The notes under the pieces are model-generated. The model made no database searches, was not told where the DNA came from, and worked only from the letters and a program-made list of their open reading frames with translations. Source: a virus (lineage: Duplodnaviria > Heunggongvirae > Uroviricota > Caudoviricetes). Taken from it: a stretch of DNA of 13,226 nucleotides. Made by a program: the position numbers and the translations under genes. This document shows positions 1 to 13,226 of this stretch, in pieces (the first letter of the stretch is position 1; every line of letters begins with the position of its first letter). The stretch is from IMG/VR virus record IMGVR_UViG_2563366869_000004, one strand, 5' to 3'.

Positions 1-1284
1 TTACAGACTTCTGGAAGGTTGCGCAGCTCTTACAACACGCGGTTGATCTTCCGCAGCGTCTTCCAGCGCACTTAAATCACGGTCTTTCACTTCTGGCATT
101 TTCAGCGCAGAGATTAAACCAATCACTGAATATGCCATGATCATAATGGCGATCGGATACCAGGATTCCGTCATGGTGCAGAAAATACCCGCCAGGATAG
201 GACCAAAACCGGAAGCGATAAGACCACCAATTTCTTTAGAAATGGCCATCCGGGTAAAGCGGTTTTTACAGCCGAACATTTCTGCCATGGTAATGTTTTC
301 CAGAGCAAATAATCCCAGCACCGCACAGTTATGAATCACAATCAGTGCAACCATAATGGTGCTCGGGGCATAGCTTTTATCTACAATGATAGAAAGCATT
401 GGCCATGCCAGCACAATCGCGGAGGTATTCATAATAATATACGGGATCCGGCGACCAATTTTATCGGATAACCAACCAAGGAACGGAATGGTCATAAAGC
501 CGAGAATCGAACTAATCATCAATGCATCTGTTGGAATTGCTTTGTTAAACAATAACGTCTGCACTAAATAGCCTGCAAGGAAAGTCTGAATTAACCCGGA
601 GTTACCCGCCTGACCAAAACGCAGCCCTGTTGCCAGCCAGAAGGATTTGCTCTGGAACATGCTACCAGCAGGTGCAGGTTTTGCTGTGGGTTGGTTGCTG
701 TCATTAACCTTCTCAAAGACCGGGCTTTCTTTCAGATTCATACGTAACCAGATAGCAAAGACCATCACGACAACGCTCGCCAGGAACGGTATACGCCATC
801 CCCACGCCAGCAGTTCCTCTTTACTGAGAATGAAGAACATAAAGGCCCAGATTGCCGTTGCGCTCAAGGTTCCGCAGTTAGTTCCCATAGCTACAAATGA
901 GGAGATAATTCCGCGCTTACCTTTTGGTGCATATTCCGCCAGCATCGTACCGGCACCGGAAATTTCCGCACCTGCACCCAACCCCTGAATAATACGCAGC
1001 GTCACCAGCAAGATGGGGGCAAAAACACCAATCTGTGCATAGGTCGGTAACACACCAATTAAGGTGGTACAGATCCCCATCATGGTGATGGTAATAAAGA
1101 GCATTTTTTTACGCCCTATTCTGTCGCCCATTTTGCCGAAAATAAATGCTCCGACAATACGCGCCACATAACCTGCACCGTAGGTTCCCATTGCCAAAAT
1201 TAACGCCATTGCCGTTGATGATTCAGGAAAAAATATTTCATGAAACACCAACGCTGCGCCGAGCGAATATAACTGGAAATCCAT
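1..1284 (-). CDS. ydfJ: MFS (metabolite:H+ symporter-type) transporter, apparently N-terminally truncated at the prophage junction
   Basis: Complete 427-codon ORF (ATG at 1282-1284, TAA at 1-3). Translation has many hydrophobic spans and the MFS loop motif GKMGDRIGRKKML. It aligns from memory to ShiA/ProP-type symporters but starts at the equivalent of mid-TM1 (DFQLYSLGAALVF vs ShiA DFLLYGITAALVF), so about 30 N-terminal residues are missing. Weak SD upstream. The ydfJ name rests on the Qin-like context and my recollection that K-12 YdfJ is 427 aa. Confidence 0.8.
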   Translation of the reverse strand: MDFQLYSLGAALVFHEIFFPESSTAMALILAMGTYGAGYVARIVGAFIFGKMGDRIGRKKMLFITITMMGICTTLIGVLPTYAQIGVFAPILLVTLRIIQGLGAGAEISGAGTMLAEYAPKGKRGIISSFVAMGTNCGTLSATAIWAFMFFILSKEELLAWGWRIPFLASVVVMVFAIWLRMNLKESPVFEKVNDSNQPTAKPAPAGSMFQSKSFWLATGLRFGQAGNSGLIQTFLAGYLVQTLLFNKAIPTDALMISSILGFMTIPFLGWLSDKIGRRIPYIIMNTSAIVLAWPMLSIIVDKSYAPSTIMVALIVIHNCAVLGLFALENITMAEMFGCKNRFTRMAISKEIGGLIASGFGPILAGIFCTMTESWYPIAIMIMAYSVIGLISALKMPEVKDRDLSALEDAAEDQPRVVRAAQPSRSL

Positions 1285-2000
1285 AATTCACAGATGTTTT
1301 TTCTCATTCTGTGGTTTCCTTGGCGCTTTCTAGGTTTTTTCAGATAGTTACATTTTTTCAAAAGCATCCTGAGTTCGATCTTACTATCTATCTGTGGCCT
1401 ATTTCTGTCCCATATATGCCCCAAAAAACACCCCAACAGATAAGCAATCTTTTCATGGTGTTACGCGTAAAAACAATAACGGCTTGAAATTATTCAATAC
1501 ACTCTCGAAAGTGCATCAGCCAACCGCAGAACGTTATTGCATACAACGTTTCTGCGGCATATCACGAAACGATTACTTAATGACTGGGACTTCAGACCAC
1601 TCAATATCCGGTACAATTATGTATCAACGCAGTTTAACAACACCCTATATTTAATCCAGAGTGCGAGCAACGTTGTCCCTTTCTCTTTTGCACTCTTAAA
1701 ATATACGATTACTTAAGTGAAGATGCTTGACGAATCGCCAAATAAAACATCTTCATCAGCATAAAAATCCATATATGATTGAAAATTTAGTCATTAATAC
1801 CATTCATATCTGAATACTAACCTAATACGCTTACTAACCGTGAGAAATCTTTTTTTTCGACTTAATCACTCGAAATAAACTTTCACTCAATTGAAAACAA
1901 TTAGCTACAATTATCATTGCAATATCAAATCAAACATAACAACTTGCATAAATTCTCATGGGATACAGCATCAGTTGTGCCAAACACATAAGGAATTGAA

Positions 2001-2198
2001 ATGGACGGAGAAAGCTTTAACTTTGATGACAATGATATTGAATTTATTGCTTCAATGTATGCATCATGTAAATTATCAGGAAGTATCGCCCCCATAATGC
2101 ATATAATGGTTAGCATTCCAAAAAATAAGAAAAAACAATTCTACGAACGAGTTGAGCATTATTGTAGTTTATATTCCAATAAAAACCCACCTTCTTAA
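2001..2198 (+). CDS. Small hypothetical protein (65 aa) in the AT-rich region
   Basis: ATG at 2001 is preceded by AAGGAA with about 5 nt spacing. ORF of 65 codons, no recognisable motif. Two other ORFs overlap it in other frames, so coding status is uncertain. Confidence 0.3.
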   Translation: MDGESFNFDDNDIEFIASMYASCKLSGSIAPIMHIMVSIPKNKKKQFYERVEHYCSLYSNKNPPS

Positions 2199-2329
2199 AT
2201 TCGCTGCATTCTAGTGGATTCCATTAAGAAAACAATGACATACACTCAAACACATCTTTTTTATCAACAGTGAATTTCAGTTCGGCCAGTTTTTACCAGC
2301 TATTATAAAAATAGCACCCATATAAAGTT

Positions 2330-2430
2330 TTTACCCCACAGGTACAGCTGGCCATTCGATAACCGCACTAAGGAAGTGCCAACACGACATCAGCAAGACC
2401 CGATATTTCTTCCATGCCGCCAGCAACGAT
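2330..2430 (-). pseudogene. Remnant of a second tail-fibre-assembly (tfa) 3' end
   Basis: 2341-2430 aligns base-by-base, same orientation, with the 3' end of the intact tfa at 3031-3120 (ctggccattc, caacacg, cagcaa, acccgata, ttcttcca, ccagcaacga shared). Minus-strand translation gives ...IEWPAVPVG*, a Tfa C-terminus, but the frame has an internal stop upstream. No ORF of 60 aa or more covers it. Confidence 0.5.
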
Positions 2431-2901
2431 GTTAAGGTTAAATTAATTATAAAAAAATATATTATAATTCCATCTTCGCATTAAATTTTAACCTTTAATC
2501 TCCACACGGAACAAGTTGCATAGGTGACTATATTAAGAAAACTTATAACCACCAAAAAGATTTGCTTTGCAAGCAAAAACAGTGACCATTGACTCTAAGA
2601 AAATTCCGATCTATTGTTAGTGTCATCAAAGTTACTTAACAGTATTCCGAAATGAAAATACAAAGCAAGCTAATTGTCTTATTAAACATTATCATTGCAT
2701 TTATATTATTTGAGCTTTTAGCTCAAAAATTTGGTTTGAGTACATTATTTTAAAGCAAGATAAACAATATCGGGCACTCTAGTTTTTATAATTAACAATT
2801 AAACGCCCATAAAATGTTATTTACTTTTCTTCGCTATTGTCATATCTTAATATAGTGGCTTACGCCACTCTACTTTCATCATATTTTGTACGTTTATGTA
2901 C

Positions 2902-2932
2902 TCGCCATGAAGCTCTTTCATGGCGATTTTTT
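2902..2932 (+). terminator. Rho-independent terminator, plus-strand sense
   Basis: Perfect 10-bp stem tcgccatgaa / ttcatggcga with 5-nt loop gctct, followed directly by tttttt (2927-2932). No A-run on the other side, so it is unidirectional and convergent with tfa. Confidence 0.5.
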
Positions 2933-3018
2933 ATTCTTAATCCAAGAACATACTCCCTACCTATAGAAAAATCACTTTTTGAACAAAAGAATAACGTATT
3001 TAGGTAATCATTACGAAT

Positions 3019-3600
3019 TTACCCTATAGGTGCTACTGGCCATTCAATATCCGGTGCAGTTGTTGTATTAACACGGTTCAGCAACACCCGATACTTCTTC
3101 CAGGCTTCCAGCAACGAGATTTCTTCCTCCGTTGCAATTTCCAGATCTGCAGCATCCTGAAGCGGCGCAATATGCTCACTGGCTACCTGCATCAGGTTGT
3201 TTTTTGTTTCTTCCGCCTCCCGGATCCGGAACAGTTTTTCTGCTTCCGTATCCTTCACCCAGGCTGTGCCGTTCCACTTCTGATATTCCCCTTCCGGCGA
3301 TAACCAGGTGACATTTTCCGGTAACGAGCCAAGTTCAGAAATAAATAACGCGTCGCCGGAAGCCACGTCATAGACGGTTTTTCCCCGATGATCTTCAACG
3401 AGATGCCACGATGCCTCATCACTGTTGAAAACAGCCACAAAGCCAGCCGGAATATCTGGCGGTGCAATATCGGTACTGTTTGCTGGCAGACCTGTATGAG
3501 GCGGAATATATGCGTCACCTTCACCAATAAATTCATTAGTTCCGGCCAGCAGATTATAAATTTTTATGGTCCGTGGTTGTTCACTCATTCTGAATGCCAT
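3019..3600 (-). CDS. tfa: Tail fibre assembly protein Tfa (lambda Tfa-like)
   Basis: 193-aa ORF beginning [48 protein letters not shown], which matches lambda Tfa as I remember it; ends ...IEWPVAPIG. Its ATG overlaps the stop of the upstream stf ORF (TAATG arrangement at 3598-3602). Confidence 0.9.
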
Positions 3601-5297
3601 TATGCAAGCCTCACAATATAGTTAAATGCGATGTTTTTGACGGTGTTTTCCGCGTTACCAGCAGCGTTAACGGTGATGGTGTGTCCATGTGAACCAATCG
3701 CAACGGAGTGCGTATGAGCACCAATACCGACAGTATGCGCGTGTGCACCTGCAGATGCTGCTGTGCCGGACAGTGAGTGGCTATGGTTACCATCTGTACT
3801 GGTATTAGCTAACGCCCCCGTAGACATACCTACTGAGCCTTGTACACCCCAGGTATTTTGACCTGAGCTTGTATAACCATATTGATAAGTATCTTTAAAA
3901 ACACTGGGGTTAAATCGACGGCCATCTCTATGGCTGTGATTACCAGCTGCATTCGTGCTGCCACTTAAACTATGGGTATGCGCACCAGTGTTATTCGTGG
4001 ATTTAGTGCCGTAATCAAACGACGATGTGGTTTTCGTCCCCAAATCAGTACTGGATGCGCTGGCGCTGTGGGTATGCGATTTTATGCCGTCCTGTTCCTG
4101 AGACAATACGGCACGACCACTGGCGGGCTTGCCCTTAATCGTCCAGCCACGCATATCAGGGATCACGCCTGACGGATAAGCGGCTGCAAGTTTCGGGTAG
4201 GCAGATTTGTCAAAAGTCTGCCCCTGCATCAGGGCATAACCAGACGGAACGGTATCTGATGGCCACGGGATTGGTGCGCCGACTGGGTAGCTTTCTGGTG
4301 GAAGATTTTTCGAGGTATAAACTTCTGCCCAGTCTTCCTCAAAACCATAACCGTCTCTTGAAGAACGGTAGAACAGACCACCATTTCTGTAATGCGCCTT
4401 CATCTGCAAGGTCCGGCAACTTCCGACTCCGGTATAGAAGTTAACCAGAATATAGCTGTCGCCAGAGCGGGTGACATTATAAGCGCCTGATTCGGCATTC
4501 CAGGGAACGCCACCATCCGCATCGGCATATGTATCCGTTGCCCTTCTGGCAAAAGCAGCCACATGCGCGGCGGTTAAAGTAATATCTTTGGAACCATCAA
4601 ACTCAACACCAGAAACCCGTCTTGGCGTTTGCAGCTTTGTTGCTGTTAATGCATTACCGTTCAGACTTGCGGACAGTTTGGTTCCAATAACCAGTTCGCC
4701 GGTTGCGTTATCAATAGCAAACGGTCTTAATGTATTCCAGCCACCATAAACATCACCTTGATTGGTAAGCAGCAGGTAAGTTTTAGCGCCATCATTACGC
4801 CATAATGCCCCATACTCCCCACCTATCATTCGAATCTGATTACCACCACGCGCTACAATTTCGTCTGTGGCAAAAAGTTTTTTGCACGACAAGTTATCGT
4901 TAACGATTAATGAATGAGACTCATAAAAACCACGCCCACTCTTAAAATCAAGGATAACGTCCGCCGCGATACATTCAGTCGCCGGATTTGTTGCCCCAAA
5001 CTTATAGGTCGTATCATTAACAACGAGATCAGCACCAGGTGCGGATATTGACAGGCCATCTTCGATAAACGCAAAAACAGGGAAAGCAGCGCCATCAACA
5101 TAGAACACAGAGCGCAAATCATCGCCCTTATTACTCATCATTATTGAGTGGATGGCTCGTTCATTGTTTTGATATTGCCAGAACATTCCATAAGCATAAC
5201 GCCCCCTGTCAGTCCAGCCACCAGGCATAACAAATCCGTTATTCGAGCAACCCACCAGCGATATCAGCAGGAACAGGCAGATCACAGGTTTTTTCAC
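3600..5297 (-). CDS. stf: Side tail fibre protein (lambda Stf-like C-terminal HxH tip domain) with an N-terminal lipoprotein-type signal peptide; probable deletion fusion
   Basis: 565-codon ORF. The C-terminal region ([75 protein letters not shown] ... [29 protein letters not shown]) has the repeated HxH motifs and the ending of lambda Stf. The N-terminus [17 protein letters not shown] is a signal peptide with lipobox LVGC. The start is GTG at 5297 with GGGAGA about 9 nt upstream, in a different frame from and overlapping the 3' end of the Rz-like gene. About 565 aa is short for a lambda-type Stf. Confidence 0.8.
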
Positions 5298-5562
5298 GGC
5301 GGAGAATCTCCCGGTATTCGATTACGGTTTTTTCGGTGCTGGTGTCGATCAGGGAGTTAAGACTGTTGGCATGTTCTGCAACCTGATTGAATCGATTGAA
5401 GTTGAATGCCTGGGTGGCGATTACCTGCCCCAGCATAGAGTTGTCACTTCGCAGAACGTCGTTATCGCTCTGAAGATTACTGGCGTAAGAGCAACTCTTG
5501 ACGAGAGCGACCGAAAGGCCAGCAATAACGACAACGCCTATAAGATCCGGATTAATTTTCAT
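5239..5562 (-). CDS. Rz-like i-spanin (inner-membrane spanin component)
   Basis: ATG at 5560-5562 overlaps the endolysin TGA (ATGA overlap). 107 aa with an N-terminal TM segment ([15 protein letters not shown]) followed by a hydrophilic, probably coiled region; position immediately after the endolysin fits a spanin. The longer six-frame ORF (to 5655) would overlap the endolysin in another frame and is not preferred. Confidence 0.55.
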
Positions 5563-6101
5563 TGCTCCAGCCCCCAGCACGCCAGTGCGCTTTCCTGATC
5601 GCGCCGCTCGACCTGCCCATAACAGCCATTCTTCTGCCCTTTTGTCAGGCGGCAATCACGCCCACCATCTTTTATCCACCAGCGAATCGCCTCGCATGCC
5701 CCCTTACGATCATCGGCATTCAGCCGCTTATAAAACGTCGACGGGAAACACTTACCGGGGCCAATGTTATAGGGACAAAATGACGCTATACCCGCTTTCT
5801 GTGGTTCGGTCAGTGGCACTTTAATATTGCGCTCCACCCATGCCAGCGCCTTATCCCGTTCAATGGCGTTAACCTGGTCGCATTTTTCCTTCGACAGTTT
5901 CATACCGGGAAAAACGGGTTTTCCATCCACCACCGTGGCACCCCGACAGATGGTCCAGATGCCGGAACCATCGCGGTATGCCGTTGTGTGGTTACCTTCT
6001 TTTTCATTCAGAAACTGGTCGAGAATATCAGGCGCAGGCGCACCGACGGCAATCAGTGCCAGAACGGCAGCCGACAGGCCGTATCTGATTTTTACGTTCA
6101 T
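5559..6101 (-). CDS. SAR endolysin (T4-lysozyme-like, GH24)
   Basis: 180-aa ORF, ATG at 6099-6101. N-terminal hydrophobic, Gly/Ala-rich signal-anchor-release-type segment (LSAAVLALIAVGAPAP) followed by the lysozyme catalytic motif E-x8-D-x5-T (EGNHTTAYRDGSGIWTICRGAT). Weak SD. Confidence 0.9.
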   Translation of the reverse strand: MNVKIRYGLSAAVLALIAVGAPAPDILDQFLNEKEGNHTTAYRDGSGIWTICRGATVVDGKPVFPGMKLSKEKCDQVNAIERDKALAWVERNIKVPLTEPQKAGIASFCPYNIGPGKCFPSTFYKRLNADDRKGACEAIRWWIKDGGRDCRLTKGQKNGCYGQVERRDQESALACWGLEQ

Positions 6102-6206
6102 GGATTTTTATCAGGATTTATCGGTTTCTGAACCCTGGATATGTTTATCTGTCCCGGCCTGTTGAATCAGGCAAGGAATAGTTAAATACAATAGAGAGGA
6201 TTGTTT

Positions 6207-6479
6207 ATGGACAATAGCACCATTTCTCTACAGGAGTTGCTCGACTGCATTTCCAAGCTTCGGGATGATGTAAATGCCCTTACTGTCGCATTTTCATATC
6301 TGGCATTCTCAATTCCCAAGGAACAAATGCAACCAACACTGGCATCGCTCCAGCTTGAATCACTCAACCCCAAATGGTCCCAGCAACAACAAAATTCTTT
6401 CAAGTGGCTGGCGATATTACTGGAAGAAAAATATGCTGGTGAAATTACCATTTCGGCGGAGTCTTCAGAGAACCAGTAA
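6207..6479 (+). CDS. Small hypothetical protein (90 aa) encoded opposite to the lysis genes
   Basis: ATG at 6207 preceded by AGAGAGGA (6193-6200) at ideal spacing; TAA at 6477-6479. MDNSTISLQELLDCISKLRDDVNALTVAF... has balanced composition and no motif I recognise. Its 3' end overlaps the 3' end of the convergent YdfR-like ORF by 35 nt. Confidence 0.5.
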   Translation: MDNSTISLQELLDCISKLRDDVNALTVAFSYLAFSIPKEQMQPTLASLQLESLNPKWSQQQQNSFKWLAILLEEKYAGEITISAESSENQ

Positions 6480-6789
6480 TTCTTCCCGGTAGCTTTCCTT
6501 TGTAGGTTATCCACACATTCTGCGCCTCTAAAATTATGGGGCGCTTTTCCGGCGACAGCTCATCCCCTTCACATAACCCGGCAGCAACATCCAGGAAGAC
6601 CTGTCTGATGCTCCTTCTGGCTGCTGCCTCATAAAACTCCAGCGCGGCACCTTCAACACGGTCCAGCGAGATGTCCAGGTCAAAAATTTCACCGTCAAAG
6701 CGTTCTTTGTCCCGTAACGCTAAAGTTACCGTAACTTTATTCTCAAAATTGCGGATCCCTTTCACAATCAGTTCATATTTTTGAGTCAT
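6445..6789 (-). CDS. YdfR-like (DUF1327-type) lysis-cassette protein
   Basis: 114-aa ORF, ATG at 6787-6789 with GGGGAGAG SD, starting 4 nt after the holin stop. It occupies the position between S21-type holin and endolysin that ydfR holds in Qin. Family assignment is by position and memory, not by a sequence match. The C-terminal third may read into inserted DNA. Confidence 0.55.
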   Translation of the reverse strand: MTQKYELIVKGIRNFENKVTVTLALRDKERFDGEIFDLDISLDRVEGAALEFYEAAARRSIRQVFLDVAAGLCEGDELSPEKRPIILEAQNVWITYKGKLPGRITGSLKTPPKW

Positions 6790-6793
6790 TGAA

Positions 6794-7009
6794 TTACTCT
6801 CCCCGTGCAGCCTTACGCTTGTCTTCTTTAATCTTGAAATAAAGGTTTGTCAGGTACGTCAGCAGGCCAAATACCAGGCTACCCAGCACACCTATTGCTG
6901 CCCACTGTGAGGGCGTGACTTTATCGAGCAGCTGTAAAAACCAGTAGCCAGCACTGCCTGCGGAGGTGCCGTAGGCAATGCCTGTTGAAATTTTGTCCAT
7001 GGATTTCAT
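6794..7009 (-). CDS. Phage 21 S-type pinholin with dual-start motif
   Basis: 71-aa [74 protein letters not shown], close to S21 as I remember it. Met1-Lys2-Ser3-Met4 dual start (ATG at 7007-7009 and 6998-7000). Strong SD GGAGGTGA upstream. The six-frame ORF extends to 7066 but the RBS supports 7009. Confidence 0.9.
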
Positions 7010-7113
7010 AGCCTCACCTCCGCACGGAACGGATGGCATAGTTATTATGTGTAGGCTTCCAGACACATCAATCGGAGCCTTAATTGATATATATGCTGGA
7101 GACGATGCAATAT

Positions 7114-7135
7114 AAAAAGCTCGCCGTAGCGAGCT
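7114..7135 (-). terminator. Rho-independent terminator downstream of the lipoprotein pair
   Basis: Minus-sense RNA forms stem AGCUCGC / GCGAGCU with loop UACG, followed by UUUUUAUAUU (plus-strand A-run 7114-7118 adjoining hairpin 7119-7134). It lies between the lipoprotein gene end (7261) and the holin start (7009). Confidence 0.5.
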
Positions 7136-7260
7136 AATAAAATGTATTTCTCTGATATTATGTTTATTTGTATTAGCTCAGACTTGACATCACAGGTTTC
7201 GTATATAGAACATCATCAAATCTGTCAGTTTGCTATGAATGAGATATAGTAATTGAAGAG

Positions 7261-7656
7261 CTAACCTCGCATGTCAAAGCCAGATTTCTGAAAATCTCTG
7301 TAGACTTCCGGATTGTTGAAGGCCGGAAATTTGGCTTTATGAGCTGCGGACTTTATCGCTTCGCAATAGGCTTTATCACCGTTACTGGTAGATATTTTTA
7401 ACGCCGTGCCATCCTGAGAGAATTCCATATGCAACCTGCATTTTTTCCCTTTCCAGTTATGCGGCTCATCAAGTTTGGCATTAATTGCAGCTCTGATTCC
7501 CCGCGCTTGCGCCCCCCATTCATCCTGATCATCCCAGCGTCCTGAACTGCAACTACCTGTAGCAGTAGTTTTGTGGCAATCTGAAGGGTGTAAAGGTGTG
7601 CATCCCGCAACAAAACCGACCCAAAAAGTCAACATAACGATTTTCTTTAATCCCAC
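7261..7656 (-). CDS. Lipoprotein with divergent TolA C-terminal (domain III)-like domain, paralog of the upstream gene
   Basis: GTG at 7656 preceded by GAGGAG at 6 nt; TAG at 7261-7263. Signal peptide MGLKKIVMLTFWVGFVAGC with lipobox VAGC and Thr at +2. C-terminus KKCRLHMEFSQDGTALKISTSNGDKAYCEAIKSAAHKAKFPAFNNPEVYRDFQKSGFDM aligns with the upstream paralog and with the TolA domain III C-terminus, both Cys conserved. Confidence 0.75.
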   Translation of the reverse strand: MGLKKIVMLTFWVGFVAGCTPLHPSDCHKTTATGSCSSGRWDDQDEWGAQARGIRAAINAKLDEPHNWKGKKCRLHMEFSQDGTALKISTSNGDKAYCEAIKSAAHKAKFPAFNNPEVYRDFQKSGFDMRG

Positions 7657-7806
7657 TTCTTGCTCCTCAATCCATTAAAATCTCAGCAATAGTAGTTGTT
7701 ACGTCCGCCACTGGCTCAGAGCTGACTATCCGCTAGATTTAGCTCAGTGCCGTAGTTGTGTCAGAACAAACCTAAGCCGAAACCGTTTATTACAAAACAA
7801 TAAATA

Positions 7807-8235
7807 TCAGGGTTTAAAATCCAGCACCCCATTTTGAAATACTTTATATACTTCCGGCGAAGGGGGGGCAGGTATATCAGCATTCTTTATCGCATTCATC
7901 GCTTCACGACATAAATCGAGGTCTCCACTTTCTCTTTTAACCTCCAGTAGAAGGCCATTCGGGGCCATATGCATTCTCAGTGTACACTCTTTTCCTGAAT
8001 ACTTACTCGCATCCCCGAACTGTTTTTCGATGGCGCTCTTGATTTGATGGGCATACAGACGGATATCCTCACTAACATCAGAAGTACGTTCAGATGAACT
8101 CACATACTGTGTCTCTATTGCTTTATCGGAGTAATATGATGTACGGTCATGATAATTTGTCGATACAGCATCAGTGCACCCGATAATAATCCCACTAATA
8201 ATCAACGTAAGAATTGATGCGCTACGAAAACCCAT
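7807..8235 (-). CDS. Lipoprotein with TolA C-terminal (domain III)-like domain
   Basis: ATG at 8233-8235 preceded by GAGGA at about 5 nt. Signal peptide MGFRSASILTLIISGIIIGC with lipobox IIGC and Thr at +2. C-terminal 85 aa YAHQIKSAIEKQFGDASKYSGKECTLRMHMAPNGLLLEVKRESGDLDLCREAMNAIKNADIPAPPSPEVYKVFQNGVLDFKP matches the end of E. coli TolA as I remember it (YAGQIKSAIESKFYDASSYAGKTCTLRIKLAPDGMLLDIKPEGGDPALCQAALAAAKLAKIPKPPSQAVYEVFKNAPLDFKP), including both Cys and the terminal LDFKP. Confidence 0.85.
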   Translation of the reverse strand: MGFRSASILTLIISGIIIGCTDAVSTNYHDRTSYYSDKAIETQYVSSSERTSDVSEDIRLYAHQIKSAIEKQFGDASKYSGKECTLRMHMAPNGLLLEVKRESGDLDLCREAMNAIKNADIPAPPSPEVYKVFQNGVLDFKP

Positions 8236-8264
8236 TTTTCCTCACATATGTCATATAGTAAAGG

Positions 8265-8294
8265 ATTATATATACCGTTGTTTTGGACGCTCAA
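8265..8294 (-). promoter_or_regulatory. Candidate sigma70 promoter for the lipoprotein pair
   Basis: Minus-sense TTGAGC (-35, plus 8289-8294), 18-nt spacer, TATAAT (-10, plus 8265-8270), about 25 nt upstream of the ATG at 8235. Pattern match only. Confidence 0.35.
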
Positions 8295-8768
8295 ACAGCG
8301 AATCAGATCAAATAAAACGCACATTTGTTAACATTTACACAAAGTCTGCGTGGGATATTCTGAAAGAATATCCATAATGTGGAGAGAATCTATTGAAGTG
8401 CATGGTGCCGGGGGCCTCCCGGTGAATTCAGTACCAGCACCTGAATCCACGATTATCCCATATACCTACTCGCTGATTGCCCCTCCGCACAGGGGGATTC
8501 ACCATGCCAGTTTCTTTTAACAAACTCCCCGCAAACCAGAGAACAGTCAACCGCCTGAATTGTGAAGTATTTAAAAATTTCTCCCGCTAACTGATACCCG
8601 GCTAACAGTCTGGCGTTTTCTTTTTCAGCAACGGGAAAGCAACAACTACCACACCCGCCACCAGCACACCGTCAGCCAGCACTGACATTATCCGGCTGCT
8701 GCAATGCCATTCACAAAAACAGTAAGCAATCACTTTTTACCGTAACAGGTGATAATCCAGATATGTAT

Positions 8769-9122
8769 CTACCCCAGATGAGTAATCCGAAGTTCATCCA
8801 TACCACAGGTCCTGGCTATTCTGTTGTACTCCTGAACAAGAGCAAATAATTCTGAATTAGCAACCATGAACTCATCGCAAACCCTCTGTATAGCATCACT
8901 ATTCAGAATAATAACGTCTCTTCCCGAAAGACGATCAGGAGCACAGAACAAAACTGTCAAACGGCTGAAGGCCTTTGCTCGTGCTGCATTGACTATATCA
9001 ATACGCTGCCTAAGGATGAAACACCCCGACGCCTCATCAATATTCACTCTACCCACACCATATGAATGATAAATATTTAATGCTGAAAAAACCATTAGAC
9101 CGTATAACAAACACTCAATCAA
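8769..9122 (-). CDS. Hypothetical ORF (117 codons) of doubtful coding status
   Basis: Largest ORF between the tRNAs and the lipoprotein genes, same strand as the late operon. Starts with TTG; first in-frame ATG at 9093-9095; no convincing SD; no recognisable motif. Confidence 0.25.
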   Translation of the reverse strand: MIECLLYGLMVFSALNIYHSYGVGRVNIDEASGCFILRQRIDIVNAARAKAFSRLTVLFCAPDRLSGRDVIILNSDAIQRVCDEFMVANSELFALVQEYNRIARTCGMDELRITHLG

Positions 9123-9232
9123 TACTTAACAGAACTTTTATTTTTGACAAACATATAATGTTTTCAACAATATCCTGAGCCAGGTATATTCCAGTATAAG
9201 GCTCTGCCGGAAGGAATCTGGAAGAATGAATA

Positions 9233-9309
9233 TGGCGCGCTGTACTGGATTCGAACCAGTGACCGATTGCTTAGAAGGCAATTGCTCTGTCCGGCTGAGC
9301 TAACAACGC
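9233..9309 (-). tRNA. tRNA-Arg (anticodon UCU), phage-borne
   Basis: Minus-sense 77 nt folds as a cloverleaf: acceptor GCGTTGT/ACAGCGC (one G-U), D-arm GCTC-AGCCGGACA-GAGC, anticodon stem-loop ATTGC-CTTCTAA-GCAAT (UCU at 34-36), 5-nt variable loop, T-arm ACTGG-TTCGAAT-CCAGT, discriminator G, CCA encoded. Confidence 0.9.
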
Positions 9310-9339
9310 TGAATACCGATAATGGACCGCCATCGGGGA

Positions 9340-9357
9340 CCCCCCCCCCCCCCCCCC
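9340..9357. repeat. Homopolymeric C18 tract (G18 in the late transcript) between the two tRNA genes
   Basis: Direct count: one C at 9340 plus 17 C at 9341-9357, flanked by ggggac on the left and gca on the right. Confidence 0.9.
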
Positions 9358-9418
9358 GCACCAACAACCCTGTTATCGTGTCGTCTGCTCTTCCTGATAA
9401 GCTCATGGCGGTTTGTGA

Positions 9419-9494
9419 TGGTGGCCCTTGCTGGATTTGAACCAGCGACCTGGCGATTATGAGTCGCTCGCTCTCACCACTGAGCTAAAGGACC
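9419..9494 (-). tRNA. tRNA with CAU anticodon; closest to tRNA-Ile2 (lysidine, ileX-like), elongator Met not excluded
   Basis: Minus-sense 76 nt GGTCCTTTAGCTCAGTGGTGAGAGCGAGCGACTCATAATCGCCAGGTCGCTGGTTCAAATCCAGCAAGGGCCACCA. Acceptor GGTCCTT/AAGGGCC (one G-U), anticodon loop CTCATAA, T-loop TTCAAAT, CCA encoded. Strong resemblance to E. coli ileX as I recall it. Confidence 0.9.
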
Positions 9495-9530
9495 GGGAGC
9501 AGAATAATAACGGTCCGTAATTAATTCCGC

Positions 9531-9557
9531 AATAAAAAACCCGCTCGGTGGCGGGTT
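9531..9557 (-). terminator. tR'-like intrinsic terminator just downstream of the Q gene
   Basis: Minus-sense RNA stem AACCCGC / GCGGGUU with loop CACCGA, followed by UUUUUUAUU (plus-strand A-run 9534-9539). It sits between the pR'-like promoter and the first tRNA, as tR' does in lambdoid phages. Confidence 0.55.
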
Positions 9558-9604
9558 GTAGAAACTCTTCTAACGTCAGGTATAAAAAGCCCATCTTTAT
9601 GACG

Positions 9605-9632
9605 AATTTACCACAGATTCCGGAAAAATCAA
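9605..9632 (-). promoter_or_regulatory. pR'-like late promoter (putative Q-utilisation region)
   Basis: Minus-sense TTGATT (-35, plus 9627-9632), 16-nt spacer, TAAATT (-10, plus 9605-9610), immediately 3' of the Q-like gene stop (9638) and about 40 nt upstream of the terminator hairpin. TAAATT is the -10 I recall for lambda pR'. Confidence 0.45.
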
Positions 9633-9637
9633 CCTTG

Positions 9638-10459
9638 TTACCTAGTTACCTTTTTTAACTGCCGCTCAGCCCATGCTTCTTCAATATCAAACCGGGTCAC
9701 CAGCGCATCATAGAATTTCTTAACTGTTTTTTCCCATGACGCGCGTGTTATCTGGTTTGTCACCTCGCATATAGCATTAAATGCCTCCGTTGATGGTAGT
9801 CTTTCATAGCCACGACCACCACAACGCTGGCAGTCTCTGATAACAGGCATACCACGTTTTACCGACTCTTCACGGTGAATGGCGACACCACGCCCACGGC
9901 AATCCTTACAGGCGGTGGAAACCTCACCCTTTCCGCCACACTCCGGACAGGCAACTTTTACCACCTCCCTGACTTTTTTCCATTCTTCCCAGTAAGACGG
10001 ATACACACCTTTCGTACACTTTGCCCATACCGGCGGCTTACCATCCGGATACTGGACCTTGTTTGTAAAAACTACGCTTTCAATAAATTTTTCCCCATAG
10101 CAACAAGGGCACTGCTTTTTACTCGCTGCGCTGCGGGCATAATCCTCAAAAGCGTACGAAGCCATAATGCGCATCACTAACGGTTTTATTTCTGCCGGAA
10201 GTTTTCTCAACGCCGCCACACGATCGCACCGACTGAGTGCATAATCTGCCAGTAATTCTGTTGCCCGCGCCCTGTCATTCATACTGATGCCCATTTTCCC
10301 CAGGAACGCAGAAAACCCCATCTCAGCCCGATTCTGTGTCATGCCCTGCGCGGCCATCACATCAGTGATACTCAGCGCATCTTTTGACGTTGAGGCCGAT
10401 GCATCGGTCAGGCAAGGGGATTTTGGGGAGTAGTATTTCGGTAAATCTTCCAGTTTCAT
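9638..10459 (-). CDS. Q-like late antiterminator candidate (QuuQ-like) with cysteine-rich repeats
   Basis: 273-aa ORF whose ATG (10457-10459) overlaps the rusA stop (ATGA). It sits between rusA and the pR'/tR' pair, the canonical Q slot. Contains CPCCYGEK, CPECGGKG, CKDCRGRG and CQRCGGRG repeats. The Q call is by position and size; I could not confirm it by sequence. Confidence 0.6.
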   Translation of the reverse strand: MKLEDLPKYYSPKSPCLTDASASTSKDALSITDVMAAQGMTQNRAEMGFSAFLGKMGISMNDRARATELLADYALSRCDRVAALRKLPAEIKPLVMRIMASYAFEDYARSAASKKQCPCCYGEKFIESVVFTNKVQYPDGKPPVWAKCTKGVYPSYWEEWKKVREVVKVACPECGGKGEVSTACKDCRGRGVAIHREESVKRGMPVIRDCQRCGGRGYERLPSTEAFNAICEVTNQITRASWEKTVKKFYDALVTRFDIEEAWAERQLKKVTR

Positions 10460-10830
10460 TTTTTGACCTGCTCTTCATGCATTATGGGGTAAATCTTCAC
10501 CCCCATACGTCCACCAGATACTGGCTGACCACGAACGATATTGATTTCATCAAACTGCTCATCGTCCATTAACACTCCCGCATGCGTCAGCGCATCCAGC
10601 GGTGCTTTAAGGATATTGTCCAGGTCGCGACGACGCTTATCCGGTGGCTCTGCAATCACCTTTATCGCCAGCCTTCCGGACAGGCTTAATTTCAGCCGCT
10701 GCTGGCGAACAATAAGCGCCACAGCCCGGCGATAACGCTTTCCCTCCTCCGAGATAAAATATGTGCTGCCACGGCGTCGCCAGTAAGTGTTCACCGTCGG
10801 CGGGTAAGGTAAAACCAAATCTATGAGCAT
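10456..10830 (-). CDS. rusA: RusA Holliday-junction resolvase
   Basis: 124-aa ORF with AGAGGTGA SD 4 nt before the ATG at 10828-10830. Contains the RusA-family core DKRRRDLDNILKAPLDALTHAGVLMDDEQ (compare K-12 RusA DRRRRDLDN...KAAFDALTKAGFWLDD as I recall it). Confidence 0.85.
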   Translation of the reverse strand: MLIDLVLPYPPTVNTYWRRRGSTYFISEEGKRYRRAVALIVRQQRLKLSLSGRLAIKVIAEPPDKRRRDLDNILKAPLDALTHAGVLMDDEQFDEINIVRGQPVSGGRMGVKIYPIMHEEQVKK

Positions 10831-10842
10831 CAGTCACCTCTT

Positions 10843-11790
10843 TTACCCAAGCACGCCAGTTGCAAAGGCGTGATCAAGAAAACGAAAGATTAAATCAACC
10901 TGAGAACCATGCTTTTCTTCGAACGCCAGCGGATCCGCATGAAGCTCGTTGTGATGCTCCCGACACAGCGGTAGCGTGAAAATATCGTGAGATTTTGTCC
11001 CCATTCCGCCCTGACCATGACCAATCAGGTGATGGGGATCGTCGGCTGGCTTACCACAACACGCACACGGCTGTGTCTTCACCCAGCGTGTGTATTTCTC
11101 GTTAACCCAGCGGCGACGTTTAGGTCGTTTCATAAAAGATTCCGGAGACTCAGGATCAACGGCAATGCTTACCACCGTCTTTTCCTGTAGTGGGTGTTGT
11201 TCCTGGTGGGCGTGAGGCAACAGTGCAAGATTTTTTGTGCGCTGTTTCAGTATGCTGGTGGCGGTCTGCTCTCCCGGTACGATGTCGCTTTCACGGTACA
11301 TTGAGCGGATTTTTTCCGCACGCAACCCCAGCGAACGACGTAATACCGCTTCCGGTAGCGCGTCCGCCACCTGATTGCGGACCGCCCACCAGGATAATTC
11401 AGCCAGAGATAATTCACGCTCCTGCGTACCGCTTATTGCGTGACCGATGACGTCAATCATCCATGCTGACAGGTTTTGATGAGCAACTTGCTCGAGTGAT
11501 TCGGATGTCTGGTCACGCAGCTGGTTGTCGCAGTGCCAGCACAACACCATTGCGCCGGTACCATAACGGTGAATGACGGTTTCGCTGTGATGATAATCGC
11601 CGTGTGGCCACTGGCAGGATTTAATATGGCGCAACAGCCAGTCAGACAATGCACCAGCACCACCAGCAGCACGAATCACCCGTGCGTTACTGAAAAACGG
11701 CAGCAATGTTTTGTCTTCCACCAGCGGCTGGCGAGCGGCAGGAACGACCCCGGACGGCAGATTACGCATGCTTTTCGGTTCCGGCTCCAC
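10843..11790 (-). CDS. DUF968-family (YdfU-like) prophage protein with C-terminal HNH-like Cys/His cluster
   Basis: 315-codon ORF ending 12 nt upstream of rusA. C-terminal CACCGKPADDPHHLIGHGQGG...CREHHNELH cluster. Start is uncertain: GTG at 11790 has no SD and the first ATG at 11769 has poor context, so the gene may be 5'-truncated. Confidence 0.7.
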   Translation of the reverse strand: MEPEPKSMRNLPSGVVPAARQPLVEDKTLLPFFSNARVIRAAGGAGALSDWLLRHIKSCQWPHGDYHHSETVIHRYGTGAMVLCWHCDNQLRDQTSESLEQVAHQNLSAWMIDVIGHAISGTQERELSLAELSWWAVRNQVADALPEAVLRRSLGLRAEKIRSMYRESDIVPGEQTATSILKQRTKNLALLPHAHQEQHPLQEKTVVSIAVDPESPESFMKRPKRRRWVNEKYTRWVKTQPCACCGKPADDPHHLIGHGQGGMGTKSHDIFTLPLCREHHNELHADPLAFEEKHGSQVDLIFRFLDHAFATGVLG

Positions 11791-11812
11791 CAGTAACCGG
11801 GTATTGTGGAAT

Positions 11813-11911
11813 ATGCCATGGGATAACAGTCCATGCTTTTACAACCTGGAAGAAATTGATCGCTGGATTGAGCGCCAGGCATCAGCGAGACCAAGACGTC
11901 ATCTTACTTGA
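11813..11911 (+). pseudogene. Possible excisionase (xis) 3' remnant upstream of int
   Basis: Plus-strand frame ending TGA at 11909-11911, 20 nt before the int ATG, reads ...MPWDNSPCFYNLEEIDRWIERQASARPRRHLT*. The EEIDRWIERQ end resembles the C-terminal helix of Xis/AlpA-family proteins. The longer frame (from 11711) starts with TTG and overlaps the DUF968 N-terminus. Weak call. Confidence 0.25.
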
Positions 11912-11945
11912 CTAAAAGCCACACTAACTAATGAGAGAAGTTGAA

Positions 11946-13226
11946 ATGAAATATCCGACAGGCGTGGAAAACCATGGAGGGAAATTACGTATCTGGTTTG
12001 TTTATAAAGGCGTAAGAGTCAGGGAAAATCTGGGGGTTCCTGACACAGCAAAAAACAGGCGCGTTGCAGGTGAACTACGCGCCTCTGTTTGTTACGCAAT
12101 AAAAACTGGTGTTTTCGACTATGCAAAACAGTTTCCCTCCTCACGCAATCTGGAAAAATTTGGTGAGGCCCGACAAGATTTAACCATAAAAGAACTGGCT
12201 GAAAAATTTCTGGCACTGAAAGAAACTGAAGTCGCCAAAACATCACTCAACACATACCGTGCCGTCATCAAAAATATCCTGAGCATAATCGGTGAAAAAA
12301 ATCTTGCCTCATCGATTAATAAAGAAAAATTACTGGAGGTTCGTAAAGAGTTACTGACTGGATACCAGATCCCCAAAAGTAACTATATTGTTACACAACC
12401 AGGGAGATCGGCTGTAACTGTAAATAATTACATGACAAATCTTAACGCCGTGTTCCAGTTTGGTGTTGATAACGGTTACCTGGCAGATAATCCGTTTAAG
12501 GGGATCTCGCCATTAAAGGAATCAAGAACCATTCCGGATCCTCTTTCGCGGGAAGAATTTATCCGTCTTATCGATGCGTGCAGAAATCAGCAAGCAAAAA
12601 ATTTATGGTGTGTTTCTGTTTATACTGGCGTTCGCCCTGGTGAGCTGTGTGCACTTGGATGGGAGGACATAGATCTGAAAAATGGAACAATGATGATCAG
12701 GAGAAATTTAGCAAAAGACCGTTTCACGGTACCAAAAACACAGGCGGGAACCAATCGGGTCATTCATCTTATTAAGCCAGCAATCGACGCTCTCCGGAGT
12801 CAGATGACATTAACGAGACTGAGCAAAGAGCATATCATTGATGTTCACCTCAGAGAGTATGGCAGAACAGAAAAACATAAATGCACCTTTGTTTTTCAAC
12901 CTGAAGTGTCAGCGAGAGTAAAAAATTATGGTGACCATTTTACCGTTGACTCAATAAGGCAGATGTGGGACGCAGCGATAAAACGTGCCGGACTCCGCCA
13001 TCGAAAATCATATCAGTCGAGACATACTTATGCCTGCTGGTCGCTGACAGCTGGTGCTAACCCGGCATTTATAGCAAACCAGATGGGCCATGCAGATGCG
13101 CAAATGGTATTTCAGGTATACGGAAAATGGATGTCTGAAAACAATAATGCACAGGTAGCTTTGTTAAATACACAGTTAAGCGAGTTTGCCCCAACCATGC
13201 CCCATAACGAAGCAATGAAAAATTAA
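11946..13226 (+). CDS. int: Tyrosine site-specific integrase (lambda-integrase family)
   Basis: Full ORF to TAA at 13224-13226. Catalytic-region motifs near the C-terminus (RHTYACWSL...HADAQMVFQVYGKW). N-terminus MKYPTGVENHGGKLRIWF resembles the prophage IntR/IntS type. Start chosen at ATG 11946 (purine-rich GAGAGAAG upstream); an in-frame ATG at 11931 is the alternative. Confidence 0.9.
   Translation: MKYPTGVENHGGKLRIWFVYKGVRVRENLGVPDTAKNRRVAGELRASVCYAIKTGVFDYAKQFPSSRNLEKFGEARQDLTIKELAEKFLALKETEVAKTSLNTYRAVIKNILSIIGEKNLASSINKEKLLEVRKELLTGYQIPKSNYIVTQPGRSAVTVNNYMTNLNAVFQFGVDNGYLADNPFKGISPLKESRTIPDPLSREEFIRLIDACRNQQAKNLWCVSVYTGVRPGELCALGWEDIDLKNGTMMIRRNLAKDRFTVPKTQAGTNRVIHLIKPAIDALRSQMTLTRLSKEHIIDVHLREYGRTEKHKCTFVFQPEVSARVKNYGDHFTVDSIRQMWDAAIKRAGLRHRKSYQSRHTYACWSLTAGANPAFIANQMGHADAQMVFQVYGKWMSENNNAQVALLNTQLSEFAPTMPHNEAMKN

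Follow-up and report, generated by a model that had tools for sequence, protein, structure and literature searches.

Does an open reading frame (ORF) that joins a lipoprotein signal peptide in frame to the receptor-binding tip of a lambda-type side-tail fibre (Stf) represent a gene in its own right, or is it the scar of a deletion? The question is raised by a stretch of DNA of 13,226 nucleotides (nt), catalogued as IMG/VR record IMGVR_UViG_2563366869_000004 (Caudoviricetes) and hereafter called the window, in which a chimeric ORF of 565 codons opens with a GTG and occupies positions 5297..3600 of the minus strand. An earlier note on this DNA had read the ORF as the outcome of one deletion running from inside an o-spanin gene through the terminase, head and tail genes to the middle of stf, and had offered as an alternative a secreted or lipidated receptor-binding protein retained by the host. 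Comparison with an intact relative at the same chromosomal site bears out the former: a single illegitimate recombination event at a 2-bp TA dinucleotide removed 22,711 bp and made the ORF. It is thus very probable that a Qin-like lambdoid prophage inserted between rspB and ydfJ has here been scarred by a deletion, and that the chimera is a by-product of that deletion and not an adapted gene.

The ORF list, the mapping of the junction and the tail-fibre domains divide the chimera into two parts: codons 1-19 (5241..5297, minus strand) belong to an Rz1-type o-spanin and comprise the GTG, the signal peptide, the lipobox LVGC with Cys17, and the residues Ser and Asn, while codons 20-565 (3600..5240, minus strand) correspond to Stf residues 631-1176. 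Since each half is near-identical to a known gene, it is not a chance ORF. The N-terminus agrees with the lipobox consensus [LVI][ASTVI][GAS]C as quoted in PMC6139136, which upholds the lipoprotein signal described earlier for this GTG ORF. The GTG sits 59 nt within the 3' end of an Rz-like (i-spanin) ORF (5562..5239) in a different frame and downstream of the endolysin gene, and is preceded by GGGAG 10 nt ahead, the o-spanin start codon and its upstream sequence having both been kept. The same GTG, in frame +1 within Rz, opens an intact o-spanin ORF of 48 amino acids (aa) in Escherichia coli PC-NDM34 and in phage mEp237; these have the same N-terminus, and the first 19 codons in PC-NDM34 are those of the chimera, so the supposition that an o-spanin normally starts at this point was correct. 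The earlier note also had the coordinates and the elements right, but its strand had to be corrected, as the feature lies entirely on the minus strand.

The parental arrangement survives in E. coli PC-NDM34, which carries an intact ~46-kb lambdoid prophage between rspB and a 5'-truncated ydfJ (99.6% match on the lysis side), and the window terminates at the same truncated ydfJ boundary. The genes of this prophage are ordered as follows: int, xis, exo, dicB, the immunity and replication genes, hokD and rem; then DUF968, RusA, Q, two tRNAs and two TolA-like genes; then essD, ydfR, lysozyme and a 178-aa Rz; and finally terminase, portal, head and tail genes, J, lom, a 1176-aa Stf and tfaQ. A blastn comparison of the window with the PC-NDM34 prophage locus (L004) yielded three collinear blocks: window 357-5241 corresponds to L004 49001-44117 with 99.4% identity, window 5237-11813 to L004 21411-14842 with 98.95% identity, and window 11812-13226 to L004 3137-1723 with 99.6% identity. 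Further, tfaQ (WP_001593356.1) and the small hypothetical gene beside ydfJ (WP_000348576.1) have the same accessions in a carrier of the junction and in PC-NDM34. On either side of a 22,711-bp gap, the window is hence collinear with an intact prophage from the same locus, and the single deletion from the o-spanin gene to mid-stf that had been postulated is directly visible.

The breakpoints were then compared base by base. The left one falls at o-spanin codon 19/20 (of 48) and the right one at Stf codon 630/631 (of 1176), where the parent Stf reads …DPMNNCEF|NGFVMPGGW…, the bar marking the breakpoint; this places the junction relative to both an o-spanin and an intact Stf, as the earlier note had suggested doing. 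The chimera is identical to the o-spanin gene over its first 58 nt (to window 5240) and to stf from window 5241 on, and the parents share TA alone at the join (5240..5241, minus strand). The 5-bp overlap between the BLAST blocks at the junction (5237-5241) was set aside as an artefact of gapped extension, the direct comparison giving 2 bp. That the join is in frame needs no special explanation because one deletion in three would be in frame. On the missing 22,711 bp lie the 3' ends of both spanin genes, terminase, portal, the head and tail genes, J and lom, and stf up to codon 630. Both spanin subunits, the tail-attachment half of Stf and every virion gene were thus lost to the deletion.

The consequences for the spanins can be traced by comparison with embedded two-component spanins such as lambda Rz/Rz1, among which ~70% of embedded o-spanins start at ~0.4-0.5 of the length (L) of the gene that contains them (Kongari et al., 2018; PMC6139136). 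The intact relative in PC-NDM34 is of this kind: its 48-aa o-spanin follows closely on the endolysin, begins in frame +1 at 0.49 L of Rz, and matches phrog_456 'Rz-like spanin' (E 1.3e-6), with the 178-aa Rz matching phrog_214 (2e-54). The window retains the start, the signal peptide and the lipobox of such an o-spanin. Unlike the known systems, it has just two mature o-spanin residues, Ser-Asn, after Cys17; beyond them 546 aa of Stf take the place of the intact sequence TRTVYVPAPCTPIPADLMKPMIVPLPPAQ, and nothing is left of the proline-rich periplasmic part or of its cysteine. Read in the frame of Rz, the join gives GAA TAA, so that the i-spanin stops at residue 107 instead of 178 at a TAA made at the junction, with the loss of its C-terminal 71 aa, the end by which an i-spanin touches its o-spanin. 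The resulting truncated gene (5239..5562, minus strand; likely ATG at 5562) covers phrog_214 profile positions 14-113 of 176 and is called a pseudogene by PGAP, the NCBI annotation. Judged by these sequences, neither spanin subunit can be functional.

The larger half of the chimera can be recognized by several independent comparisons, which included Pfam and PHROG profiles, a PDB match and lambda proteins. Pfam places Gp34_trimer at chimera residues 96-195, gp37_C at 260-329 and Collar at 340-387, in addition to a Phage_fiber repeat. The C-terminal 231 aa (residues 335-565) match the receptor-binding tip of T4 gp37 (2XGF, E 3e-85) and show 71% identity to lambda orf-314, the C-terminal part of Stf; with seven HxH motifs in the chimera and an HxH needle tip in its stf part, the identification of a lambda Stf C-terminal HxH-repeat domain stands. 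Directly downstream lies tfaQ (3600..3019, minus strand), encoding the cognate tail fibre assembly chaperone of 193 aa (Caudo_TAP 3e-42; WP_001593356.1). It is intact, as had been stated, and is 94% identical to lambda Tfa. In its tip, HxH repeats and Tfa the window therefore resembles lambda Stf/Tfa and T4 gp37. It differs from lambda Stf in lacking the N-terminal 630 residues, which include the Ala/Ser-rich shaft and the region labelled 'prophage tail fiber N-terminal domain' by PGAP; it shows no resemblance to lambda orf-401, and a lipoprotein leader stands in place of the Stf N-terminus. There is also no tail for it to attach to, as terminase, head and tail genes were found neither in the window nor in any of the genomic contexts read. 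The chimera is accordingly a remnant of an o-spanin and of an Stf, and is neither a true o-spanin nor a complete Stf.

The junction itself is absent from phages. When 801 bases around it were used as a megablast query against phage records, none of the 33 matches covered at least 80% of the query and none spanned the junction: in mEp237 and further phages the match covers the lysozyme/Rz side and ends at the junction, and in a second set, with ev099 and mEp332 among its members, the match begins there and covers the stf side at up to 99.7%. The matches in E. coli genomes split in the same two-sided manner. By contrast, of 5,426 complete E. coli genomes searched, 59 carry the junction, and in 58 of these 59 the match covers at least 80% of a 3.2-kb query with 98.9-99.9% identity. 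The carriers were obtained from pigs, humans, poultry, dogs, a cat, a frog and water on several continents. With an identical junction in dozens of independent complete genomes, an assembly artefact was rejected. An exact-sequence look-up of the 565-aa protein retrieved 574 contigs on record, and in all 24 contigs whose context was read the order is lysozyme, truncated Rz, chimera, tfaQ, ydfJ and ydfI, with head or tail genes in none. Full-length homologs with this N-terminus in intact phages, which would have spoken for a bona fide protein, were thus not encountered among the phage records and the contexts read. The look-ups took the place of a protein database search with a 72-aa junction peptide, whose four matches (one partial copy of the same chimera, two Stf-region fragments that cross the breakpoint, and a short piece of the stf part with a frameshift) are uninformative on other contexts owing to word-index limits. 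The annotation of the locus is uneven: in a carrier genome PGAP gives the stf half as a pseudogene, 'tail fiber protein, missing N-terminus', and the Rz half as another, 'hypothetical protein, missing C-terminus', while certain other records list the chimera as an ordinary protein, for which some depositors use 'tail fiber protein'.

Among known elements, a close parallel is the cryptic prophage Qin of E. coli K-12, which shares with the window the gene names tfaQ, rrrQ and essD and a ydfJ truncated at the boundary, and which, like similar remnants, owes its defective state to large deletions and insertion sequence (IS) insertions. We take K-12 Qin to occupy the same site with a different pattern of deletions. 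The o-spanin::stf junction sets the 59-genome group among the 5,426 apart from Qin. Large deletions that spare lysis genes and an stf/tfa fragment are a familiar event in cryptic lambdoid prophages of E. coli, and the junction described here is a new instance of them.

What would become of such a chimera if it were expressed? The in-frame join puts the o-spanin start, signal peptide and lipobox Cys ahead of the C-terminal 546 residues of Stf. Given a late transcript, it would be expected to be translated from the inherited o-spanin start signals, exported by Sec and lipidated at Cys17. Sorting to the outer membrane, as for the o-spanin, would be predicted because Ser, rather than Asp, stands at +2 after the Cys. 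The fibre part would then reside in the periplasm, apart from the cytoplasmic Tfa, from any tail and from the receptor at the cell surface, and a receptor-binding role is therefore hard to see. Even the first step in this chain is doubtful. Lambdoid late genes need Q antitermination, and the ORF is most likely silent because late transcription should need Q and the region upstream of the Q operon is deleted in the window. On these grounds the chimera is most likely a silent, drifting chimeric pseudogene, and almost certainly functionless.

The fate of the ORF among its carriers points the same way. It has been broken by IS3 near the 3' end in four carrier genomes, and in other carriers by ISVsa5 near the 5' end, by a frameshift, and by an internal deletion that also takes the 5' part of tfaQ; one carrier assembly has multiple frameshifts in the ORF, which are possibly sequencing errors. 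The ORF has thus been damaged independently in at least four ways since the deletion, in a lineage differing by about 0.1-0.2%, and such independent disruptions argue against selection for the ORF. The identity among carriers, 99.8-99.9%, leaves too little divergence for a within-carrier ratio of non-synonymous to synonymous rates (dN/dS).

Among the matches listed, in which carriers of the present junction predominate, one further lysis::stf junction was seen. In E. coli UK_Dog_Liverpool (NZ_CP031653.1), a remnant next to ssrA contains an in-frame endolysin::Stf fusion of 875 aa (4563-7190, minus strand, of the corresponding locus L013), followed by tfa. The fusion consists of the N-terminal ~89 aa of the endolysin with its hydrophobic leader and the C-terminal ~786 aa of a near-identical Stf, and is annotated by PGAP as a lysozyme pseudogene and a 677-aa 'phage tail protein'. 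It is comparable to the present chimera as an independent deletion between lysis cassette and stf that is in frame and has tfa after it. It is unlike it in its breakpoints (endolysin ~89, and a point further upstream in Stf), in its chromosomal site and in having a hydrophobic leader instead of a lipoprotein signal. We treat this fusion as a lead and not as evidence of function.

Some of these observations nonetheless weigh against a mere by-product, and they can be taken together with the proposal they would favour, namely that the chimera has been domesticated as a lipid-anchored receptor-binding protein that serves as a superinfection-exclusion factor, as a decoy for the Stf receptor or as an adhesin of the envelope or of vesicles, with Tfa kept alongside for the benefit of the host. 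The ORF is still intact in roughly 50 of the 59 carriers, i.e. in most of them, and tfaQ is intact too; the start signals come from a really translated gene and, being the unchanged translation signals of the o-spanin, could allow some protein to be made. The retained part of stf differs from the intact allele by 14 synonymous codon changes and one non-synonymous change, which resembles purifying selection, and the independent fusion in UK_Dog_Liverpool again joins an export signal from a lysis gene to the C-terminus of Stf, so that two of two such joins are in frame, with a chance probability of ~0.11. We rejected the 14:1 ratio as a sign of selection on the chimera, since there is no way of placing the changes before or after the deletion, and it probably reflects the history of the gene in functional phages. 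As to the second fusion, most lysis genes start with a membrane-targeting segment, and an export signal on a lysis::stf fusion is thus expected by chance. The four or more kinds of inactivation in so young a lineage, one of which also removes part of tfaQ, and the IS elements that have entered other parts of the remnant in further genomes speak against domestication, as does the expected need of the late operon for Q, whose upstream region is lost from the window. Topology is a further obstacle, since o-spanin-type lipoproteins face the periplasm, whereas the receptors of Stf-type fibres lie at the cell surface and Tfa stays in the cytoplasm. We therefore consider domestication very unlikely, and the alternative of a retained receptor-binding protein, as first put forward, gained no support and is weakened by the independent disruptions. 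More unlikely still is that the chimera was made, lipidated and kept for a time for host benefit, whether by blocking phages that use the same receptor or by altering the surface of the outer membrane or of vesicles; were that true, in-frame fusions of lysis genes to stf would be a recurrent route to such proteins.

Two other accounts concern the origin of the ORF and not its use. The join might have arisen by recombination of two prophages, with the stf-tfa end imported from another element, a scenario to which the slightly different block identities to PC-NDM34 (99.4% on the stf-ydfJ side as against 98.95% on the lysis side) and the high similarity of stf-tfa modules over many E. coli prophages lend some colour. 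However, one and the same intact prophage, located at this chromosomal site, is collinear with both flanks up to the ydfJ boundary and WP_000348576.1, and a homologous exchange is excluded because only 2 bp are shared at the junction. An import of this kind is exceedingly improbable, and its product would be the same scar either way. The ORF could instead be taken as a bona fide phage gene, a tail fibre variant with a natural lipoprotein leader, for which nothing but the existence of the ORF and the name 'tail fiber protein' given by some depositors can be cited. Against it stand the lack of any phage record across the junction, the absence of head and tail genes from all 24 contexts, the near-identity of the two halves to two genes that lie 22.7 kb apart in an intact prophage at the same site and the missing tail-attachment region of the Stf N-terminus; this reading is hardly credible and already effectively refuted. 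The deletion scar accordingly remains the preferred explanation.

Beyond annotation the finding has little importance, other than as a base-by-base record of how a complete prophage became a remnant through one illegitimate deletion; a wider interest would follow only if the improbable functional reading were true. Some gene callers as well as depositors list the ORF as an ordinary protein; however plausible such a 565-aa 'lipoprotein tail fibre' may look, it should be marked as a chimeric pseudogene. The junction is further a convenient marker for the carrier genomes, both the 59 complete ones among 5,426 and hundreds of draft assemblies. The locus also illustrates the stepwise nature of prophage decay, in which a deletion is followed by IS insertions, frameshifts and further deletions.

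One such further deletion affects the window itself. The earlier note described the o-spanin::stf deletion and omitted a second one of ~11.7 kb, unrelated to the first, which by comparison with the intact prophage is located at window 11812/11813. The last 100 nt of xis (11812-11911) are thereby joined to a DUF968 gene lacking its first ~79 nt (10843-11790; codon ~27), and exo, dicB, the immunity and replication genes, hokD and rem are lost. Among the 5,426 complete genomes it is common to two alone, GPEC1240 and FDN-11. Because the second deletion is confined to these two complete genomes, the o-spanin::stf deletion came first and decay is ongoing. The int gene and the xis remnant point away from the DUF968, RusA and Q genes, everything upstream of which is gone in the window. 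A promoter scan gave 16 sites against 14.6 ± 3.5 in shuffled sequence, i.e. no excess. Just downstream of Q, on the minus strand, a strong terminator-like hairpin (9557-9538) may be the late terminator tR'. Also downstream of Q are two tRNA genes on the minus strand, a tRNA-Arg (anticodon tct; 9233-9309) and a tRNA with a CAT anticodon (9419-9494), the latter assigned to Met by ARAGORN and to Ile by PGAP.

The tRNA genes are followed by two ORFs with lipoprotein-like leaders (…FVAGC and …IIIGC) at 7261-7656 and 7807-8235 (minus strand), both of which contain a TolA C-terminal domain (PF06519, 1.3e-14 and 2.4e-23, respectively) and sit between the tRNA genes and the holin. The slot between the post-Q tRNA genes and the holin is the location of stx in Shiga-toxin phages. 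The TolA-like ORFs are candidate accessory (moron) genes, whose products could interfere with the Tol-dependent entry of colicins or filamentous phages; in some genomes PGAP gives one of them as a tolA pseudogene. In some carriers ISCro1 (IS66 family) lies between a TolA-like gene and the holin, and in some IS3 is found in a TolA-like gene, besides its insertions in the chimera. IS5, IS1 and IS4 were noted just as features under the match, elsewhere in the remnant or near ydfJ, in other genomes.

The lysis cassette (5559-7066, minus strand) is of the phage 21 type, with a holin of the P21 family (PF04971, 1.8e-35) and a DUF1327/YdfR gene between holin and endolysin. The endolysin gene rrrQ (5559..6101, minus strand), which lies upstream of the spanin remnant, encodes an intact protein of 180 aa, as identified from its annotation and from Pfam (Phage_lysozyme, 1e-23). 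Its N-terminus is hydrophobic and rich in Ala and Gly (LSAAVLALIAVGAPAP), and resembles a signal-anchor-release leader. Despite the destruction of both spanin subunits, the holin and the endolysin have remained intact. Between the ydfR-like and endolysin genes an antisense ORF of 92 aa (6201-6479, plus strand) overlaps the 3' end of the ydfR-like gene; it has no Pfam match and is listed by PGAP as hypothetical, as WP_001593363.1 in the remnant and WP_000370545.1 in the intact prophage.

At the other end of the window, ydfJ (1-1284, minus strand), which encodes an MFS transporter, has its 5' end cut at the prophage boundary. The ~1.7 kb between it and tfaQ (1285-3018) show little coding signal apart from one conserved hypothetical gene of 65 aa (2001-2198, plus strand), the WP_000348576.1 mentioned above, for which Pfam returned no match; this interval presumably holds the prophage end and the attachment site.

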